A stretch of 64,000 bases of DNA from Deltaproteobacteria bacterium (GTDB lineage: Bacteria; Desulfobacterota; Dissulfuribacteria; Dissulfuribacterales; DYLC01), in NCBI GenBank assembly GCA_028695735.1, contig JAQVIJ010000003.1:306246-370245 (forward strand), written 5' to 3'. How positions within the stretch are numbered: the stretch's first letter is position 1; every line of letters starts with the position of its first letter. Positions 1-43,971 of the stretch are shown piece after piece. The translations under genes were made by a program, and so were the position numbers. The notes beneath the pieces were generated by a model. It saw only the letters and a program-made list of their open reading frames with translations. It searched no databases and was not told the origin of the DNA.

Positions 1-1906
1 CATTCGTGGTATCTGCAGGAGGTGTTGCAGCCGGCCTCTCTGTATTGGGCAACAGGGCCGCCTTCAGCCGTTTTTTCCAGACTTCATCGGGCATTCTGGT
101 CTTGCTGCGCCTGTCCACAGGTATGGTGAGAATAAAGGTGCTGCCCTTGCCCAGTTCACTTGAGACCGAGATATCGCCACCCAACATCTGAGCCAGTTTC
201 TGCGATATGCTCAGACCAAGCCCTGTCCCGCCGTATTTGCGTGTATATGAGCCGTCCACCTGTTTGAAGGGTTCAAAGATGAGCTTTTCATATCCCTTGG
301 GAATGCCTATGCCTGTGTCTATCACCGAAAATACGATATAATCCCTGTCTTTTGCTGTTTTCCCCGTGCATTTCAGGGTTATTTTGCCTTTTTCCGTGAA
401 TTTGACGGCATTTCCCAGGAGATTTGTCAGTATCTGGTTGAGCCTGCGCTGGTCTGTCACGATGGTTTCAGGGGCTTCGTCCATCTGTGTTTCAAAGGTG
501 AGGTCCTTTTTCTGGGCCAAAGGCGCTATGGAAAGCCCCAGTTTTTCTATGAGGTCCCTGGTTTTGACAGGAGTGAAGCGCAGCTCCTCCCTGCCTGATT
601 CGATGCGTGTGAGGTCCAGGATATCGTTTATGAGTTCCAGCAGGTTTTCGCCGTTTCTGAGCATGATATCCAGGTATTCCTTGTGGCGTTGGTCCTGCGT
701 GACCTGATAGTCGTCCAGCATGAGACGGGCCAGGCCTAAAATGGAGTTTAATGGTGTGCGCAGCTCATGGGACATGTTGGAGAGGAATATGGACTTCATG
801 CGATTGGCCTCTTCGGCCTCCTTGCTCTTTTTCTCCAGGGCGTCCCTCTGTGCTATCAGTTCTTCTGTCTGGGCCTGAATCTCCTCACTCTGCGCCAGCA
901 GTTCCTCGCTTTGCGCCTGTAATTCCTCGTTCTGGGCGTTCAATTGTTCGTTTTGCTGTTTCATGGTCTCGGAGAGCTTGACAATCTCCTGAGTGTGTAG
1001 GGCATTCTGAATGGCGAGGCAGGTCTGAGGCAGTAGGTTTTCCAGATAGGCCTTGTGCAGGGAGAGGTCGTTGAAGGAGCCCAGTTCCATGACCCCCAGC
1101 AGGGTGTCCTGCAGAAGCATGGGGATGCAGATGATGGAAAACGGATGCGCATCCAGAATGCCGGTCTTGAGCTTGAGGTGGTCAGCCGGCAGGTTCTCAA
1201 GCAGCAGGGTTTGTTTTGACTGGGCGGCCTGGCCTGGCAGCCCCTGACCCAGGCCGAACTCGGGCGGATTTGTGAACAGGGCATGGGCGGCCAGGGGGGT
1301 CAGCACACCGCGCTCCTGGTCCCATATATAAAACACACCTGTTGCAGAGGCAGTATTTTCAATGAGGACGGAAAGCAGCCGTTTTGCCATCTCTGAAAGA
1401 TCACCGGCCTCATGAAGAAGGCGAATGACCTTGTAGTGCATCTCCAGTGTCTGATAGTTGGCGGCCAGTTCCTGATTTTTTTGTTCAAGGGCGTTGGCCA
1501 TGGCCACATAGTGGCTGTCGTCCTGAATGGTCTGCACTATGCCGGCCAGTCGGCCGTGCTGGTCATAAAATGGAGAGGAGATGACTCGAGCCGGAAAGTT
1601 TTTTCCATTCCAGAGCTCGCATTCATAGAACAAAAGGAGATTTTTATTCTCGCCGCTGGCTATCTGTCTTATGGGGCAGTTTTCTGTATGACAAAAACCT
1701 GGTGCATGAGTGATCTCAAAGCATTTTTTGCCCAGACTTTCCGGATTGCTCATATCCACCATGGTATCCATGGCAGGGTTCTGAGTGAGCACATGACAGT
1801 TCATGTCTATCATGCGAATGGGTGTGGGAGCGCGCATGTAGAGCTGATAAACCGCCTCATAGGCGAGGATATGGTCATCATAGATTTGAAAAGGGCTGTT
1901 ATCCAT
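1..1906 (-). CDS. PAS/GAF sensor histidine kinase, 3' end cut by window edge
   Basis: Absent from the ORF track because it runs off the left edge. Hand translation from ATG at 1906 is stop-free to base 2. It shows a Cys-rich PAS-like N-terminus, a GAF-like middle, a Q/E-rich coiled coil, H-box [13 protein letters not shown], and G-boxes DTGIGI and [11 protein letters not shown]. The start overlaps the cheR stop by 8 nt. Confidence 0.85.
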
Positions 1907-2768
1907 GGTCAGCCGGTCCTTTTTTATAGATTTTTATGCCGTGTTTGACTGGTGCAAGGGATTCCAGAAGTTCATCCGGCATGCTTTCCGCTTTTCCCAG
2001 CACCAGATAACCGTCTGGGTTCAGGCATTCACAGAGTCTGCGCAGTGTATCGAGTTTCTGCTGGTAATCATAATAGATGAGCACATTTCTGCAATAGATG
2101 ATGTCATATTCGGTGAAGATGCCGATGGGCGGGGCAAGATGTTTCACTGTCGTGATATCGAAACACACAAACTGAGCCATGTCCTGAATCTCTGGAATGA
2201 GCTGCATGTGTTCAGGCATCCCTATTATGCGCTGAAAGGCGTCTGGATGTGTGGACAGGACATCTTCAATGGATTTGATGGGATAGACGGCTTTCATGGC
2301 CTTTTCTATGGCCATTTGGTCTATATCCGTGCCCAGCAGAGTGATATTCCATTTTTTTCTTTCTTTCTCCTCCATGCGCTGAAGGTATTCAAACAGCAGA
2401 ATGGCTGTGGAATACACCTCCTCTCCATAGGCGCAGGCAGTGCTCCAGATGCGGATGTTGCGGTCGTTCTGCTGGGCATGTCTTTCGAAGAGTGCAGGTA
2501 TGATCTGCTGTTCAAGGTAACTGAATATCTCGGTGTCTCGAAAGAATTCGCTGACCTTGATGGTAAGGGAGTGAAGAAGGGTCTGGTATTCCAGCGGGGT
2601 TTTCTGCAGATAGGCCTCATATTCGTCTATGTCGTATATGCCAAGGGCTGACATGCGCCGCAAAAGCCTTCTTTGAAAGGTTCCGGGATTGTAGTTTGAA
2701 AATCTGCAACCTGTGCGTTTTTCCACAAGCTGTTTCAGGTGATTGATACGTTCAGGCTCCATATTCAT
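1899..2768 (-). CDS. cheR: CheR-type protein-glutamate O-methyltransferase
   Basis: 289 aa. N-terminal CheR helical domain (FQRRLLRRM), SAM-MTase core IWSTACAYGEEVYS and IIYCRNVLIYY. Its start shares 1 nt with the upstream stop (TAATG). Confidence 0.85.
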   Translation of the reverse strand: MNMEPERINHLKQLVEKRTGCRFSNYNPGTFQRRLLRRMSALGIYDIDEYEAYLQKTPLEYQTLLHSLTIKVSEFFRDTEIFSYLEQQIIPALFERHAQQNDRNIRIWSTACAYGEEVYSTAILLFEYLQRMEEKERKKWNITLLGTDIDQMAIEKAMKAVYPIKSIEDVLSTHPDAFQRIIGMPEHMQLIPEIQDMAQFVCFDITTVKHLAPPIGIFTEYDIIYCRNVLIYYDYQQKLDTLRRLCECLNPDGYLVLGKAESMPDELLESLAPVKHGIKIYKKGPADHG

Positions 2769-4111
2769 TATAAATGTGTATGTATGATGCGCGGGACAGT
2801 GGCAAGGATGTCTTCTATGGCACGTTCGTCAAGGTCAAGGGCGGTGATGGCACTTTGGCTCAGTCCGTTGGTCATGGAGTCGTTGGAAAGCCCTATGCCG
2901 GCTATGTTGCAGATGTGATCAGCGACATGAATGATGCAGGGAAGGGGTGAGATTGTATTCATGTTTTCGGGCTCATGATGAAATGCTATTGCCTCCTCCA
3001 GTTCCGCAGGAAGCTGCCAGTTGTGGGCTATATACTGGCCTATGGCTGCGTGGTCCAGGCCGAATACGTCTTTTTCGGCCTGCACAAAGGATTCGTTTTT
3101 CAGCAGGACCCTGCTGGTAACCTGCGTGAACATGTCCATGCCGTAGCGTTCTATCACGATCTTGCCGATGTCATGCAGCAGACCGGCCAGATATGCCGTC
3201 TCCGGCTCCGTGCAGCCGGTTACCTTGGCTATTGCCTCGCTTATGCGGGCACAGGTTACGGAGTGATAGAAGAACGCCCCTTCTTCCATGTCATAGGTGG
3301 TGATACGCCTGTCATATATGTCTGCAAGACAGGTGTCCATAACGATTTTTTTAAATGTCCTCATGCCAAGGTATGCAACGGCCTGTGATAGGTTGTGCAC
3401 CTGTCTGGAAAGTCCGTAGTAGGCGGAATTGGCCTCCTTGAGCATATTGGCTGCCAGCACCTGGTCCTGGAGAATGAGTTGTTCCAATTCGCTGATGTTG
3501 GTGTCCTCGCCGTTGGTGAGTTGAAGGGCGCGAATGGCCACATTGGAACTGGGTTTCAGGTCTTCAGCATTCTGAAGAATGGAGGTGCGCAAGGTATTGG
3601 CATTCCATTGTTCGTCAATCTGCCGGCCCGCCTCTTCTGATGTGGGCATTCTGGATGTGCGGACATGAATCTGGCCGTTTCGCATGTACAGGCGCATTAC
3701 ACGCCCCAGATTGCCTGCCACGTGCTGGTATGAGACCTTTACATCCGCCTGTCTCAGACCCTCCATTACAGCGAGCAGATTCCGCTGACCTATTTTGAGG
3801 TCTGTCCCAGTATTTTTTGTCATGATGGATGCACCGCCTGCAATGGCCGTGGTTGCGGTTTTTCTCTCGCCTCCCAGTTCTTCAAAGGCATTCAGGAGGA
3901 ATGGAATGGCAGTAGTGGCATAGGCGGCTGGATGGGTCTGTTTCTTTTCAGCAGGGCCATCAGGCAGCAGGATGTGGCACATGCCGCCGATATGCCTGAC
4001 CGCATCGTATATGGCCACGCCGACACAGGAGCCGAGACAGGTCTCGAGGATGGTGTCTGGGTCTCCGGTGACCCGGCAGTCGCCTATGTGCACAAGTTGA
4101 ATCTCTTCCAT
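2768..4111 (-). CDS. CheD (chemoreceptor glutamine deamidase) domain fused to an HDOD domain
   Basis: 447 aa. Residues about 1-160 are CheD-like (LGSCVGVAIYD, GGMCHILLP). The C-terminal part is HDOD-like (LLHDIGKIV, AFHHEP). Confidence 0.8.
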   Translation of the reverse strand: MEEIQLVHIGDCRVTGDPDTILETCLGSCVGVAIYDAVRHIGGMCHILLPDGPAEKKQTHPAAYATTAIPFLLNAFEELGGERKTATTAIAGGASIMTKNTGTDLKIGQRNLLAVMEGLRQADVKVSYQHVAGNLGRVMRLYMRNGQIHVRTSRMPTSEEAGRQIDEQWNANTLRTSILQNAEDLKPSSNVAIRALQLTNGEDTNISELEQLILQDQVLAANMLKEANSAYYGLSRQVHNLSQAVAYLGMRTFKKIVMDTCLADIYDRRITTYDMEEGAFFYHSVTCARISEAIAKVTGCTEPETAYLAGLLHDIGKIVIERYGMDMFTQVTSRVLLKNESFVQAEKDVFGLDHAAIGQYIAHNWQLPAELEEAIAFHHEPENMNTISPLPCIIHVADHICNIAGIGLSNDSMTNGLSQSAITALDLDERAIEDILATVPRIIHTHL

Positions 4112-4251
4112 TTATATTTTTGAACTTTCCTTGGGTGATAATGTATGAATGTTTCAGGGGTTCCCTTAAAATATCAGAAATGGTTTGGGCAGTCAAAAGA
4201 TATTGTGGTTTCGGATTCCGCTGCCGCCCCCACAGTATCTTTTTGTTTTAT

Positions 4252-6656: not shown

Positions 6657-7751
6657 TCATTTTACAAAAAGTTCCCATAGCAGGTCATGTATGGCCGGCC
6701 TGAATCTGCGCATTTCATTCATGTTTTGGGTGTTATCCGCACGGGGAAACGGCCGATTGCACAAGAAAATCATTATAACCTCCTGTTTTAGATCCATCCA
6801 GAAGGAACAACCTGTCCAGCCAAGATGCCCCACTGTATGGTTTGAGAAATATCTGCCTGAGCTGGAGGAAAGGGAAGGGGTGTCAAAGGCCAATGCACGG
6901 GTATGCGGGCCTGCAACAGGAGTGAAAAAGGTCTGAAGCCAGTTGCCAGGAATAAGCCTTGAGCGAATGCGGCCATTGTGTATCTCCAGTAGCCGCACAA
7001 GGGCCTGAAGCAGAGCAGAGGCATTGCCAAAGAGCCCTGCATGGCCTGCCACGCCTTGAAGCCACCAGGCGTTCAGGTCGTTTACCTGGGCTGTTACCAT
7101 GGTCTTTCGTACGGGACAGTAGCCTGTTGGGGCAAAGGCCTCTTTTAACCTGCTTGACTCCATTGAATCTTCATGAATGGGCAGAAAAAAGAGCTGCTCG
7201 GTCTGAAGCCCAGGTAGAATCCTTTGTTCAAAAAGGACATGCAGGGGAGTTTGAGTGAGTTTTTCCAGAAGAATGCCCAGCAGGATAAAACCCAGGTCAC
7301 TGTATGTGGGGACCGGGGCCTCCAATGCCAGGGAGCTGATGAGCTTGAGGCAGGCGGCCTTTCTTTCACCAGGCCCTATGTCCTTTAGGAGCTCATATAG
7401 ATTCAGATGGGCTGCCAGGCCGGAGGAGTGGGACAACAGGTGTTTTAATGGAATATCAGCGAGGCTGCCTGCGTCCTTTCCCAGCAATCTGCTCATGGGC
7501 AGTTCCAAAGAAAGAAGCCCCTCGCTGCACAGATGAAGGGTGACAAGCCCGGTCACCAGGGGTTTGGTGAGGGATGCCAGGTCGTAATAGGTATCAGGAG
7601 TCACCTGATGAGAGCCTTCCTCGTATGTGAGCCTGCCGTGGGCCATGAGGTGCACCTCTCCCCTGTGCCAGACGGCTATGGAACAGCCCGGAAAGAGCCT
7701 GGTCTCAACGGCCCTGTTCAACATTGGAAATACGGCTTGAGATCGATGCAT
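6657..7751 (-). CDS. serine hydrolase, beta-lactamase/PBP4*-like family
   Basis: 364 aa. SxxK motif ASLTKPLV, YSD, and an HLG triad near the C-terminus. Confidence 0.75.
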   Translation of the reverse strand: MHRSQAVFPMLNRAVETRLFPGCSIAVWHRGEVHLMAHGRLTYEEGSHQVTPDTYYDLASLTKPLVTGLVTLHLCSEGLLSLELPMSRLLGKDAGSLADIPLKHLLSHSSGLAAHLNLYELLKDIGPGERKAACLKLISSLALEAPVPTYSDLGFILLGILLEKLTQTPLHVLFEQRILPGLQTEQLFFLPIHEDSMESSRLKEAFAPTGYCPVRKTMVTAQVNDLNAWWLQGVAGHAGLFGNASALLQALVRLLEIHNGRIRSRLIPGNWLQTFFTPVAGPHTRALAFDTPSLSSSSGRYFSNHTVGHLGWTGCSFWMDLKQEVIMIFLCNRPFPRADNTQNMNEMRRFRPAIHDLLWELFVK

Positions 7752-8181
7752 GGCTTATGATAGCAAAGCCCTTTAAAAATAACATCATGAAAAAAACACC
7801 AGATAATGAGCCAAGGTATAAAAATGAGAAAAATTTCAAAAAAATGAGAAAAAAAGAGAAAATAGAATGTTGAAAACCTGTTAAAAAACAATGTCAGCAT
7901 AACTTCTTTGATTTATTGGAGTTTTTATTCACAAAAAAGGCTTGGATTTTAAAGGGTTATCAAAATTCATTTCAAATAGCTAAACAAAACAAATCGTTAG
8001 GGCATATCCTGTAGTGCTATTTCTTTTTTCTGATAAGTGATTTTATAACAGGCACCATTGTTTGACAGTTGCGTGACGGTCTTGTATGAATCTGAAACAT
8101 TATTTTTGAGGAAGACCTGGTGACTTCACTCCGACGGCGAACGCCGTTCAGGGAAGTTTTGAAAATGGGAGAGATATCTAT
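7752..8181. other. candidate oriC / dnaA promoter region (AT-rich)
   Basis: 430-bp divergent intergenic region immediately upstream of dnaA, visibly far more AT-rich than its flanks. AAAATGAGAAAAA occurs at 7821 and 7841 with a 20-bp offset. One consensus DnaA box is present. Confidence 0.45.
7925..7933 (+). promoter_or_regulatory. DnaA box TTATTCACA
   Basis: Exact match to TTATNCACA. It is the only perfect box I found in the region; TTATCAAAA at 7956 has 2 mismatches. Confidence 0.4.
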
Positions 8182-9537
8182 ATGGAGAGTGTCTGGAATA
8201 CTGTCAAGGGCCATCTGCGTTCCAGTATTTCTGCAAGCAGCTTCGAGGTCTGGATAGAACCTATACAGGTAGTTGACATAAAGGAAGACACCCTGGTACT
8301 TGGATGTCCCAACCGTTTTTTTGCCTCATGGGTGCAGGAACACTATCTGCCCCTGATCTCTCAATGCCCTGAGCTCGAAAATCGTATAATCCGTCTGACC
8401 TGTGAGTACAAAAAAGAAAACTCCGCTGAGGCATTTCTGAAACAGCCTGAAAATCAGGCACAGCAGGCTGTTTTGCCGGATTTCAACCCCAGAAAACCTG
8501 CGGCCCCGCGTTTCAGCAGGCATTACTCATTTGATGAATTTGTGATCGGAGAATGCAACAGATATGCCCATGATGCCTGTAAGGCCGTTGCAAGTGGTGA
8601 AATAAGCCAGGGTCGTATCCTGTATCTGCATTCGCCTTCAGGGCTGGGCAAAAGCCATCTGTCTCAGGCCACCGGCCAGTTTATCCTTGAAAACAGGCCG
8701 TCCATGCGTATATCCTACCTTTCCGCCAATGAATTCACCAATCAGGTGGTTCGGGCTGCAAAGGATGGGCAATTCGAGGGTTTTAAGCAGAAATACCAGC
8801 AGGAATGCGATATCTTGCTCCTGGAAGAGGTGCACTGCCTCTCCGGCAGACATCGCACACAGGCGGAGCTGGCGCTGATAATAGACACCCTCAGAGACAG
8901 CGGCAAGACCATTGTCATGACCGCCAATCAGCCTCCGGTGCGCCTTGCAAATCTGCATGAAGGACTTGGCTCCCGTCTCAACGCCGCCATAGTGGCCAAT
9001 ATAGATGAGCCCGATAAACAGACCAGATATAACATACTGGCGGTAAAGGCACTGAGAAACGGCCTCGTGGTGCCTGACATGGTGCTGGATTATCTGGCTG
9101 AACGCCTGTTCGGGGATGTCAGACGGCTGGAAGGGGCTGTGGTGGGGCTTCTGACCCGTACTGCCTTGACGAAACAGGAGGTCACTCTTCAACTGGCCCA
9201 GGAGATGGTTGGAGACATGGTGGGGCAACCACTTGACCTGAATATTCAGGCCATTCAGGAGATATTGTGCCGTTTCTATAAACTGACCACCGCTGAACTC
9301 ACCTCCAGGAGCAGGAAGAGAAGTGTATTGTGGCCCCGCCAGATCGGCATGTATCTGGCCAGACAATACACATGTGAATCCCTTGAGGAAATAGGCAAGG
9401 CATTCGGCAGGGACCATGCCACCGTCATACACGCGGTCAAACAGGTGCAACAGATCGTTGAAGACGGCGGAAGATGGAAGGGCGAGATAGATTTTCTTTC
9501 CACTCAACTGGAGAAGATGAGGTGGCGTGGAAAATGA
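8182..9537 (+). CDS. dnaA: chromosomal replication initiator DnaA
   Basis: 451 aa. Walker A SPSGLGKSHL, Walker B DILLLEEVH, C-terminal DNA-binding signature DHATVIHAVKQV. Confidence 0.95.
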   Translation: MESVWNTVKGHLRSSISASSFEVWIEPIQVVDIKEDTLVLGCPNRFFASWVQEHYLPLISQCPELENRIIRLTCEYKKENSAEAFLKQPENQAQQAVLPDFNPRKPAAPRFSRHYSFDEFVIGECNRYAHDACKAVASGEISQGRILYLHSPSGLGKSHLSQATGQFILENRPSMRISYLSANEFTNQVVRAAKDGQFEGFKQKYQQECDILLLEEVHCLSGRHRTQAELALIIDTLRDSGKTIVMTANQPPVRLANLHEGLGSRLNAAIVANIDEPDKQTRYNILAVKALRNGLVVPDMVLDYLAERLFGDVRRLEGAVVGLLTRTALTKQEVTLQLAQEMVGDMVGQPLDLNIQAIQEILCRFYKLTTAELTSRSRKRSVLWPRQIGMYLARQYTCESLEEIGKAFGRDHATVIHAVKQVQQIVEDGGRWKGEIDFLSTQLEKMRWRGK

Positions 9538-23591: not shown

Positions 23592-24440
23592 ATGACCCAA
23601 GAGCAATCAAATGTTTCCATACCTATTGGAATACAGACTGCCATAAAAAATATCAAGCCCATTTCCCCTTATGTGCTGGAAATGGTGACCAATACCTCCC
23701 TTGAGGACCTCTCTCTGCTGGACCTGGCCAGAAAACTCAGCTTCGAGCCTGTGCTGTCCGCAAGGATACTCGATGCCACAAAGGCCGCAGCATACGGTCT
23801 TTCAAAGGAGGTGGAGTCCGTGTTTCAGGCGGTCTCCATTCTGGGCGGCAGAAGGGTGCTGGACATCATCGTTGCGTCGTCCCTGCAGGATTCCTTTGGC
23901 AAAAGCTTTTTGACGGTTGAATATGACATCTGGGAGCACAGTCTTCTGGTGGCATACGCCATGCAGGGTATGCTTCGAGAACTGGACATGTTCATCACAC
24001 CCTTGGCCCGCGGTTTTACCACGGGTCTTATGCACGACATCGGCAAGCTGGTGTTGCTGCAATATCTGAAAAACGAAAAAAGGGACGCTGAGCTGGCCGA
24101 GTTTTCAAAGTATGCCGTAAGCGGCGGGGATAAGGCCATTGATGCGGAACGCATTCTGTTCAGGGTAACCCACATGGATATAGGCGCATATCTGGCCAAA
24201 AGCTGGTCTATGCCTGAAGAGATGGTGACTGCCATAGCAAATCACCACATGAAAGACAAAAGGCGGTTTCCAAACGGCCTTACCAGGCTCCTGGTATGGG
24301 CGCATACGCTTGTGGACAAAAATCTCACGCCGGATCAGAAGAGAAGCATGCTTCCGTTTTCAATCATCGACAAACAGGAAGAGCTGCTGGCCTCCATTCA
24401 GAGGGAGGTGGACAACATCATCTTCTTTTTTGAAAAATAG
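23592..24440 (+). CDS. HDOD domain signalling protein
   Basis: 282 aa. GLMHDIGKLVL and ANHH motifs. Confidence 0.8.
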   Translation: MTQEQSNVSIPIGIQTAIKNIKPISPYVLEMVTNTSLEDLSLLDLARKLSFEPVLSARILDATKAAAYGLSKEVESVFQAVSILGGRRVLDIIVASSLQDSFGKSFLTVEYDIWEHSLLVAYAMQGMLRELDMFITPLARGFTTGLMHDIGKLVLLQYLKNEKRDAELAEFSKYAVSGGDKAIDAERILFRVTHMDIGAYLAKSWSMPEEMVTAIANHHMKDKRRFPNGLTRLLVWAHTLVDKNLTPDQKRSMLPFSIIDKQEELLASIQREVDNIIFFFEK

Positions 24441-24446
24441 CTATCT

Positions 24447-24765
<319 letters not shown>

Positions 24766-24789
24766 CAGCTTTTGCCGGAACCATGGGTG

Positions 24790-24924
24790 TGCCAGATCAC
24801 GCCTGCGCGCCGGTCGGTGTCCATCGGGGCCTATGTCCTCCTCGCGTTCGATGGTGTAATCAAGAGCGCGCAGCTGATTCAGCAGCGCAGTTTCGATTTC
24901 GGCCTCCGATAGAAACGCTATTAT
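24790..24924 (-). pseudogene. hsdR: hsdR N-terminal fragment (type I restriction R subunit)
   Basis: The translation AFLSEAEIETALLNQLRALDYTIEREEDIGPDG resembles HsdR N-termini. The SD TAAGGAGA is followed by ATA where a start codon is expected. The reading frame runs into a REP after about 45 codons. Confidence 0.6.
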
Positions 24925-24932
24925 GGTTCTCC

Positions 24933-25525
24933 TTATGGGCGGGCATTGAGCGGATTTTCTTGATCCAGCGCCCATTGCAGCGGATTGTTTACGATATATT
25001 CGCGAATGCTATCCAAATCTTGCCCATCGCGAATGATGTGTTCGTAATAGTTGCGCTGCCATAATCTGCCTGCAAATGGCGACCAGCCTGATTGTTTCAC
25101 GCCGTTGGCATACCGTTTCGTGGTCATCGTTTTGAATCGATGAACCACATCAGGCAATGACAATGTAGGGGCAACCCCCTGTGGTTGCCCCGAATATGGG
25201 CGGTCATCGCTATCTGGGCGGCCACGGGGGGCCGCCCCTACCAGCCTTTGGGGGGCCGCCCCTACGATGACGATGATTCCGTGTACATGATTGGGCATGA
25301 CCACAAATTCGTCGGTGGCGACACCAGGATAAAACGTCGGCAGGTCATTCCATACCGATTCAATCATTCGCCCCGCGTCATTCAGTCGTATGTCCCCGTC
25401 CACCACATCACCCAACAAACAGGCGCGACCCTGCGTGCAGATCGTCACGAAATACGCACCAGCCTGCGCATAATCGTATCCTTTTAAGCGGATGCTGCGC
25501 CGAGGGTGAATGTTGGCCAGCAAGA

Positions 25526-25529
<4 letters not shown>
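24933..25529 (-). CDS. REP-associated tyrosine transposase (RAYT, IS200/Y1 HUH family)
   Basis: 198 aa. HUH motif NHVHGII and C-terminal WQRNYYEHIIRD, typical of orphan Y1 transposases. The middle contains an in-frame REP cluster. Confidence 0.8.
25153..25265. repeat. REP cluster inside the RAYT ORF
   Basis: Hairpins at 25165..25191 and 25216..25241, plus a partial one at 25250..25265. I counted 3 mismatches over about 90 bp against the intergenic cluster 15814..15902. Confidence 0.85.
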
Positions 25530-26122
<593 letters not shown>

Positions 26123-42978: not shown

Positions 42979-43971
42979 TTATGGTGTGACAAGGACCACT
43001 TGCAACTCCTCAGCCCTTGGTTTAGCCCCTTCTGTGGCCTCCTTGCCTATGGCTATGGGTATGCCAGGTAGTTGCACAACCCTACTGACGATCTCGGCCC
43101 TCTTAGCTGCCCGCTCCACATCCACTCGATCCACCTTGACAGAGACCTCTGCGACCAACACCACCTCTCTATTGGGATCATGCCTTGAAAGACCCCTGGC
43201 TACCACATCTACATTGAGTATCTCATATCGTTCATCTTCGCTGATGATATGTTGATCGAGGGCCTCATCCAGGGCATCCGCCAGCATCTCATGGCTTACC
43301 ACCCTACATTTTTTGATGAGTTTCCCAAAATAAGACGGCGCCCTTTCCCTCACTCTTCTTTCAAAGTCATTACCCTTGAGATCACCCACATCTATCTCTA
43401 TTTTATTTACCCTGCCTGTGAGTTTAGCGACATCAGTCTTAAGTACAGCAACATCGGTTTTGAGCTCCGCTACATCGGTCTTAAGTACAGCAACATCGGT
43501 TTTGAGCTCCGCTACATCGGTCTTAAGTACAGCTACATCGGTCTTAAGTACAGCTACATCAGTTTTGAGCTCCGCTACATCAGTCTTAAGCACTCTTACA
43601 TCGGTTTTGAGCTCCGAGACATCGGTCTTAAGGACAGCCACATCGGTCTTAAGGACAGCAACATCGGTTTTGAGCACCCCCACATCGGTCTCTACAACTC
43701 CTACTCTATTTTTGAGCTCACTTACATCGGTTTCTATGTTCCCTACCTTTTGGGCAAGGGGTTTGAAGTCATCTTTTACAAAGGCATCAAAGCGCTGTGG
43801 CAGACGCATCAATTCTTCGGTTAAAATAAGGCGTCTTATCTCCTCCAACCAATGAGGATGGGTTTTTAATGCCACGATGATGTCATTTACTGTATGGATT
43901 TCAACGACTTCTTCTTGAGATGGCTTTGATGAGATGGAATATGCAATAGATGGTTCTTCTATTTGTGTCAT
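42979..43971 (-). CDS. hypothetical protein: N-terminal helical region, about 14 [T/E]DVxxLK heptads, C-terminal alpha/beta domain (possibly degenerate PD-(D/E)XK-like)
   Basis: 330 aa. Has its own AT-rich upstream spacer and an RBS-like GAGGGA. The C-terminus LNVDVVARG..VLVAEVSVKVDRVDVERAAKRAE is reminiscent of restriction-endonuclease-fold proteins, but the ExK motif is not canonical. Confidence 0.6.
   Translation of the reverse strand: MTQIEEPSIAYSISSKPSQEEVVEIHTVNDIIVALKTHPHWLEEIRRLILTEELMRLPQRFDAFVKDDFKPLAQKVGNIETDVSELKNRVGVVETDVGVLKTDVAVLKTDVAVLKTDVSELKTDVRVLKTDVAELKTDVAVLKTDVAVLKTDVAELKTDVAVLKTDVAELKTDVAVLKTDVAKLTGRVNKIEIDVGDLKGNDFERRVRERAPSYFGKLIKKCRVVSHEMLADALDEALDQHIISEDERYEILNVDVVARGLSRHDPNREVVLVAEVSVKVDRVDVERAAKRAEIVSRVVQLPGIPIAIGKEATEGAKPRAEELQVVLVTP
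43381..43731 (-). repeat. 21-bp coding tandem array (core 43423..43689)
   Basis: Units ACATCGGTCTTAAGTACAGCA and ACATCGGTTTTGAGCTCCGCT alternate about 13-16 times, in frame, giving TDVAVLK/TDVAELK heptads. Confidence 0.9.

Follow-up and report, generated by a model that had tools for sequence, protein, structure and literature searches.

A CheD–HDOD fusion in the place of CheB beside a putative methyl-accepting histidine kinase

Proteins termed methyl-accepting coiled-coil (MAC), of the MAC1 and MAC2 types, were reportedly named and predicted by Wuichet and Zhulin in 2010 (Sci Signal 3:ra50). Two later sources define MAC1 as CheB and CheR fused to a kinase and MAC2 as the separately encoded form (bioRxiv 10.1101/2022.05.07.491037; PMC6943060), and MAC kinases are common in genomes. 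Here we describe an operon at the start of a 64,000-nucleotide stretch of DNA (the window; Deltaproteobacteria bacterium, assembly GCA_028695735.1, contig JAQVIJ010000003.1, positions 306,246 to 370,245 of the forward strand), which encodes a CheD–HDOD fusion protein, a stand-alone CheR and a hybrid sensor histidine kinase. We put the probability at roughly 60% that this locus is a two-component system of the MAC2 type whose own kinase serves as the methyl-accepting receptor, with CheD–HDOD in the place of CheB. A reading made from the sequence only had proposed a kinase tuned directly by methylation and deamidation. Its direction was largely right; however, such kinases already bear the names MAC1 and MAC2, and only the exchange of CheB for CheD–HDOD looks new. 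The replacement of CheB by a CheD–HDOD fusion in one lineage-restricted clade is apparently undescribed, as is the partnership of CheD and HDOD in general; in the library searched we found no paper treating CheD and HDOD together, with or without CheR.

What the locus shares with MAC2 systems is a sensor kinase whose DHp domain is preceded by Glu-Glu (EE) heptads, a neighbouring gene for a separate CheR of a kinase-associated clade, and the lack of a methyl-accepting chemotaxis protein (MCP), CheA or CheW. The coiled coil of the window kinase comes after a GAF domain, an arrangement found in many of the relatives sampled. Unlike MAC2 systems, the locus contains a CheD–HDOD fusion rather than CheB, and its enzyme genes lie upstream of the kinase gene. 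The cfcABC system of Pseudomonas putida is a probable MAC2 example. It comprises the kinase CfcA with CheR3 and CheB3, and chemotaxis has been ruled out for it (PMC4951495). With the MAC1 proteins of Nitrobacter hamburgensis (WP_011505251.1) and Leptolyngbya (WP_198808535.1) the locus has the motif NEELQSSNEELETAKEE of the heptads in common, and the CheR domains are close relatives, but the MAC1 proteins carry CheB and CheR in one polypeptide with the kinase, whereas the window enzymes are separate, the partner is CheD–HDOD and there is no CheB domain. The CheC–CheD–MCP systems of Bacillus subtilis and Thermotoga maritima (2f9z) have the same CheD fold and Cys-His dyad and, possibly, a comparable regulatory partner module. 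They differ in that the window CheD is fused covalently to HDOD, is presumed to act on a kinase helix and has another residue in place of the Thr of the Thermotoga triad, and in that no MCP is encoded in the 64 kb. Finally, six classical che clusters (L014, L015, L024, L025, L036 and L045) also have CheD and HDOD partners beside CheR, with related CheD domains, although these clusters encode CheD and HDOD as separate genes, have a CheR of the chemotaxis clade and contain genes for CheA, CheW, MCP and CheB.

The three window genes lie on the minus strand with overlapping stops and starts, as the sequence-only reading had stated and as open reading frame (ORF) calls and direct reading both confirm. 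The stop codon of cheD-HDOD and the start codon of cheR share TAATG at 2766-2770, while the last 8 nt of cheR overlap the start of the kinase gene (ATGGATAA, 1899-1906). Through these overlaps the stoichiometry of CheR and CheD–HDOD is tied to that of the kinase. The three genes first described are not the whole operon, which runs past the start of the window. Contigs L001-L005 encode an identical CheR, and L001, which carries the same genes, shows the rest of the operon. The full-length kinase has 935 amino acids, arranged as PAS-like, GAF, coiled coil, HisKA, HATPase and two receiver (REC) domains, and a 408-residue REC-HisKA-HATPase protein begins 16 nt after it, so that three receiver domains are encoded in the operon. 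The gene order continues with trkH, 15 nt past the REC-kinase gene, and then trkA (L001 14929-16940, outside the window start). Upstream, a gap of 140 nt parts cheD-HDOD from a radical-SAM gene and contains a single sigma-70-like match, which is a candidate promoter only, because promoter-like sites are no more numerous in the region than in shuffled sequence; a terminator scan was likewise at chance level. The adjacency of trkHA may connect the system with potassium or osmotic regulation. At the three other loci with readable downstream genes (L080, L087 and L089), trkH and trkA do not follow the REC-kinase gene.

In the kinase, five heptads of the form xEE[L/I]xAQ lie between the GAF and DHp domains. 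The last heptad ends 26 residues ahead of the phospho-accepting His380, and like Tar methylation sites 295, 302 and 309 the heptads have the context E-E-x-x-A. An AlphaFold model based on a 43-sequence alignment (mean predicted local distance difference test (pLDDT) score of 86.7) contains one unbroken helix of 121 residues (aa 282-402) that covers the last GAF helix, the heptads (pLDDT ∼89-96) and the first DHp helix. Pfam recognizes GAF_2 (4.9e-11), HisKA (1.8e-20) and HATPase_c (5.7e-31), and the N-terminal PAS_9 match, at 22.6 bits, falls below the gathering score. In the PAS-like region C62, C72-H73, C77 and C95 are kept in three orthologues, and these four Cys and one His residues may form a metal- or Fe–S-sensing site. 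When all six frames of loci L001-L090 and of the window were scanned for a strict pattern of three heptads, only the kinases of the cassettes described below matched; the other kinases of the window lack the heptads.

The gene set recurs as a cassette at seven other loci, from Desulfobacterota and Nitrospiria, each with its own, unrelated flanking genes. Wherever relatives with 33-46% identity have readable neighbourhoods, the order is always CheD–HDOD, CheR, multidomain kinase, an optional REC protein and the REC-kinase. A heptad-bearing kinase is present in all eight cassettes, with four or five heptads and a gap-free alignment from these to the H-box; in L085 the heptads are in a second kinase downstream, and the HisKA_3 kinase beside CheR is without them. 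Two of the cassettes (L080 7431-8000 and L087 6414-7004) also have a gene for a REC-HTH_17 (MerR-like) response regulator that abuts or overlaps the start of cheD-HDOD. This protein is a candidate output regulator, and the window version of the cassette does not have it. In the Nitrospiria cassette (L007 8001-9299) an in-frame TGA lies between CheD and HDOD with an ATG one codon beyond, reflecting either a split gene pair or else readthrough or a sequencing artefact.

More distant relatives, of ∼30% identity, are found in other settings. Some are orphans, several of which adjoin selA (L009, L011, L082 and L083) and others of which have no recognised neighbour (L010 and L023). The rest are those of the six classical clusters, from Desulfobacterota, KSB1 and related metagenome-assembled genomes (MAGs), which have the order CheA-CheW-CheR-CheD-HDOD-(CheY)-CheB together with MCPs; in four of them CheY follows CheD and HDOD and precedes CheB. 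The survey of gene neighbourhoods on which the sequence-only reading had staked the choice between kinase and MCP neighbours therefore gave a split answer, because the near clade is uniformly kinase-linked while the distant CheD/HDOD pairs are in chemotaxis clusters or are orphans. A tree of CheD domains was poorly resolved, with kinase-linked and che-cluster groups intermixed at bootstrap values of ∼1%, so we make no claim on the ancestral arrangement. That CheD and HDOD are fused everywhere was considered and rejected, as they are separate genes in the six che clusters and at the Nitrospiria locus. The CheR-CheD-HDOD class of chemotaxis cluster seems regularly to include a stand-alone HDOD protein. 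A scan of genome contigs with a generic HDOD peptide gave 73 loci, mostly of plain HDOD proteins, with ∼13 full-length matches.

The lineage of CheR separates the two settings. The window protein matches CheR_N (PF03705) and CheR (PF01739) with an E-value of 6.4e-38, and it can be aligned with E. coli CheR over its S-adenosylmethionine (SAM)-binding motifs (FFRD, IWSTACAYGEEVYS, GTDID and CRNVLIYY) and its basic N-terminal helix. With these catalytic motifs intact, the enzyme looks active. In a neighbour-joining tree the kinase-associated CheRs (the CheD–HDOD-linked, MAC1-fused and MAC2-adjacent proteins) split from those of che clusters and E. coli in 100 of 100 bootstraps, and in 200 of 200 with a smaller set. 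The window CheR sits in the kinase-associated clade, and its identity to the CheR domains of CheB-CheR fusion kinases is 33-37%.

Heptads of this type are widespread. The repeat, in forms such as NEELQSSNEELETAKEEMQSVNEELQ, is also found in plasmid-encoded CheB-CheR-kinase fusions of Leptolyngbya, Nitrobacter hamburgensis and Spirosoma. A census with a degenerate DNA pattern for EELQxQxEELxxQxEE gave at least 120 metagenomic loci, and the counts that follow apply to the 120 matches listed and, for neighbours, to their stored flanks. A kinase core was present in 97 and CheR in 52, while CheR together with CheB was found in eight, a lower bound for CheB because many stored flanks are short; neither CheD nor HDOD was found at any of the 120. 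Of 98 metagenomic heptad kinases, 87 have the heptads in the same phase to the His. A further two kinases with heptads, examined individually, both have CheR adjacent, and a poly-HAMP kinase (P0254) has neither heptads nor a CheR nearby. One CheB-CheR fusion (P0146) is located at a contig end. A search with the GAF-coil-DHp fragment returned short or partial proteins that are not true orthologues and showed only how widespread the heptads are, and tblastn of the coil plus kinase core against plasmids matched the kinase core only, with no annotated MAC2 example. At one locus (L095 6077-13071) a CHASE3-GAF heptad kinase and its adjacent CheR adjoin a REC-SpoIIE phosphatase, a sigma factor, an anti-sigma kinase and a STAS protein, which suggests that the output of some MAC2 systems goes to sigma-factor control of the general stress type.

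The absence of MCP, CheA, CheW and CheB from the flanking DNA, claimed at the outset, was borne out by tblastn and Pfam for the 64-kb window. E. coli Tar, Tap, CheW and CheZ (queries taken, like the other E. coli chemotaxis proteins, from L084) gave zero matches to its six frames, while the matches of CheA were confined to the ATPase cores of ordinary kinases and those of CheB to receiver domains. Pfam analysis showed a chemotaxis domain in none of the ten plausible signalling ORFs of the window, among which are kinases, a GGDEF protein and a second HDOD protein, and the remaining ORFs were judged from their translations to be housekeeping genes. Neither the window nor any of the eight cassettes was found to have MCP, CheA and CheW together with the adaptation enzymes, and a CheB methylesterase was found neither in the window, nor within 10 kb on L001, nor in the seven other cassettes. 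The second HDOD protein is a stand-alone protein of 282 aa (23592-24437, plus strand; Pfam HDOD 2e-37) and is ∼30% identical to the HDOD part of CheD–HDOD.

CheD–HDOD is annotated in its closest public counterparts (Deltaproteobacteria or a Dissulfuribacterales MAG) simply as 'HDOD domain-containing protein', and CheD–HDOD fusions gave at least 438 matches, nearly all from Desulfobacterota-like sources. Pfam places CheD at aa 48-152 (PF03975; 1.8e-21, 76.8 bits against a cut-off of 25) and HDOD at aa 189-381 (PF08668; 2.3e-55, 187.6 bits), and the HD family is matched as well (2.2e-14). The AlphaFold model has two domains (mean pLDDT 81.7). The CheD domain aligns with T. maritima CheD (PDB 2f9z_C; 4.4e-18), and its model superimposes on that structure with a TM score of 0.87 and a root-mean-square deviation of 2.1 Å. 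C29 and H46, which correspond to the catalytic Cys and His of the Thermotoga enzyme, are invariant across 41 homologues, which argues for retained catalysis. The best NCBIfam equivalog for the domain scores 112 bits, below its cut-off of 251, and the NCBIfam name for Thermotoga CheD is deamidase/methylesterase. No association of CheD with an MCP was seen in the 64 kb; CheC was not searched for. In the HDOD domain H283, H313-D314, K317, H354 and H378 are invariant in the homologue alignment and H379 is kept in at least 90%. Since the full His/Asp set is present and the Pfam HD threshold is passed, catalysis by this domain is a possibility. HDOD proteins of the PDB related to it are 3hc1 (7e-32), 3m1t, MmoQ and SadB, and its fold matches those of 3hc1, MmoQ, SadB and Cj0248. 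Some proteins deposited as response regulators, MmoQ for one, contain HDOD, and the best-studied HDOD protein, SadB, is an adaptor (PMC12075610).

We propose that the PAS-like and GAF sensors feed the single long helix predicted by the model, which would run directly into the DHp helix bearing His380. The five Glu-Glu heptads of this helix have the EExxA context of chemoreceptor methylation sites, and the co-translated CheR would methylate their glutamates with SAM. By analogy with chemoreceptors, methylation would neutralise charge on the coiled coil and shift the balance between kinase and phosphatase activities, and phosphoryl groups would pass from the hybrid kinase to its own receivers and to the downstream REC-kinase. 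CheD, with its Cys-His dyad kept, would do what CheB does in other MAC systems and oppose or prime the modification, presumably by deamidating Gln and, in the way reported for Thermotoga CheD, by hydrolysing glutamyl methyl esters. The methylesterase role is the better fit to the absence of CheB from the cassettes. The HDOD domain could be a regulatory or adaptor module, and might couple CheD to the phosphorylation of one of the three operon receivers, much as CheB has a receiver of its own. A receiver-responsive HDOD is attractive, if speculative, given the CheD-HDOD-CheY order in four of the six classical clusters, the occurrence of HDOD in response regulators and the three receivers of the operon. 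The proposal in full, in which CheD–HDOD is an analogue of CheB, a receiver-responsive HDOD gates CheD, and a self-contained system adapts by feedback-controlled methylation of its own kinase helix, is one that we hold tentatively and with considerable doubt. If a receiver-gated CheD–HDOD is correct, it would be the first mechanistic role for the widespread, uncharacterised HDOD domain, and would account for the conserved CheD-HDOD-CheY order of chemotaxis clusters. The fusion and the separate CheD/HDOD pairs also offer a testable lead on HDOD function. The cassette is a convenient test of whether reversible glutamate methylation can tune an ordinary histidine kinase, because it is compact, is translationally coupled and has five candidate-site heptads in fixed phase to the His.

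Several observations weigh against a methyl-accepting kinase opposed by CheD, and they bear on three other explanations. Two concern CheD. The third residue of the catalytic triad, Thr21 in Thermotoga, is not kept, the position being E23 here (with T24 adjacent) and Q or A in the wider family. In addition, the pair positions of the heptads are nearly all EE. Gln is rare there, occurring in heptad 4 of L006 (EQ) and of the L085 kinase (QE) and in heptad 1 of the window kinase, as Q321 of NEQL, at a position that is L, I or A in other orthologues. This scarcity makes the case for deamidation thin, and Gln/Glu variation was rejected as evidence of it for the same reason. Hence, while the comparative evidence of linkage, heptads, fusion kinases and the CheR clade favours the kinase as the putative substrate, as the sequence-only reading proposed, its deamidation half is weakly supported. 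The scarcity of Gln would also suit a CheD that acts as a binding partner, modulating the kinase from the EE helix as Bacillus CheD does on receptors, with HDOD in a putative CheC-like role, in which it would sequester or release CheD in response to a phosphorylated receiver, or dephosphorylate that receiver. The CheD-HDOD-CheY order, the complete HD-type His/Asp set and the adaptor function of SadB (PMC12075610) are consistent with this explanation. We nevertheless regard it as unlikely, as the invariance of Cys29 and His46 points to retained catalysis.

A second group of observations concerns chemotaxis. CheD and HDOD are also neighbours in classical che clusters that have MCPs and CheB, so nothing intrinsic restricts the pair to kinases. 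L079 carries a flagellin gene, and a gene for a PilJ-type MCP lies near the L087 cassette, so these relatives are probably motile and have MCPs, and the 2022 preprint states that most MAC-bearing species have chemotaxis systems too (bioRxiv 10.1101/2022.05.07.491037). CheR and CheD–HDOD could, on these grounds, be ordinary adaptation enzymes for MCPs encoded elsewhere, with the adjacency of the kinase reflecting co-regulation only. This is decidedly improbable when set against a CheR that separates from the che-cluster type in 100 of 100 bootstraps, a heptad kinase in every cassette despite differing flanks, stop/start overlaps that fix the stoichiometry of both enzymes to that of the kinase, and the lack of MCP, CheA and CheW within 64 kb.

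The last two points against concern MAC proteins at large: the preprint calls them 'not experimentally characterized in any respect' (bioRxiv 10.1101/2022.05.07.491037), and 44 of the 52 CheR-bearing loci among the census matches listed have neither CheB nor CheD in their stored flanks, many of which are short, so a reversing enzyme may not be obligatory. That the heptads are a structural signalling helix only, with CheR methylating the REC-kinase, a receiver or CheD–HDOD or being non-catalytic, accords with the long helical linkers that commonly enter the DHp domain of sensor kinases and with the fact that methylation is not reported for any MAC protein (bioRxiv 10.1101/2022.05.07.491037), but is very unlikely in view of the chemoreceptor context EExxA, the tracking of heptads with CheR in MAC1 fusions, MAC2 neighbours and the CheD–HDOD clade, the other window kinases without heptads and the conserved catalytic motifs of CheR.

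Table 1. Features of the operon in window coordinates, and the other loci at which the cassette occurs.
Feature	Position	Strand	Details
cheD-HDOD gene	2768..4111	minus	447 aa; ORF call and Pfam CheD, HDOD, HD
CheD deamidase domain, aa 1-155	3647..4111	minus	Cys29 codon 4025-4027, His46 codon 3974-3976
HDOD (HD-related) domain, aa 173-447	2771..3595	minus	Pfam HDOD/HD and PDB HDOD proteins
cheR gene	1899..2768	minus	289 aa; Pfam CheR_N and CheR
Hybrid sensor histidine kinase gene	1..1906	minus	window holds aa 1-635 of 935
PAS-like sensor region, aa 32-129	1520..1813	minus	PAS_9 below gathering score
GAF domain, aa 169-285	1052..1402	minus	Pfam GAF_2
Methyl-accepting-type coiled coil (putative), five heptads, aa 319-353	848..952	minus	sequence alignment
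HisKA (DHp) domain, aa 371-438	593..796	minus	His380 codon 767-769; H-box SHELRTP
HATPase_c catalytic domain, aa 484-598	113..457	minus	Pfam
Sigma-70-like promoter candidate	4168..4196	minus	TTGACT-17-TATTTT, with TG; pattern match
Cassette, L079			metagenome contig
Cassette, L080			Ca. Desulfofervidus
Cassette, L006			Syntrophobacteraceae
Cassette, L007			Nitrospiria
Cassette, L085			metagenome contig
Cassette, L087			MAG
Cassette, L089			Desulfobulbaceae

Other features of the window were recorded in passing. The dnaA gene (8182..9537, plus strand) lies ∼4 kb from the operon and adjoins an AT-rich intergenic gap (region 7751-9537), from which the window is probably near a replication origin; matches to the DnaA box within the window were not above chance. 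Downstream of the second HDOD gene, GC-rich palindromic REP-like repeats (GGGCGAACACGGGGGTTCGCCC) occur in at least five copies within 24437-26122, together with a 212-nt direct repeat (24503-24714 and 25911-26122, 99% identical), and these repeats flank an IS200/RAYT-like transposase ORF (24933..25529, minus strand). A further ORF (42979-43971, minus strand) has a 21-nt unit repeated 12.7 times in tandem at 43426-43691, which specifies a 7-residue repeat of the LKTDVAV type, and its product is a coiled-coil protein with perfect heptads.

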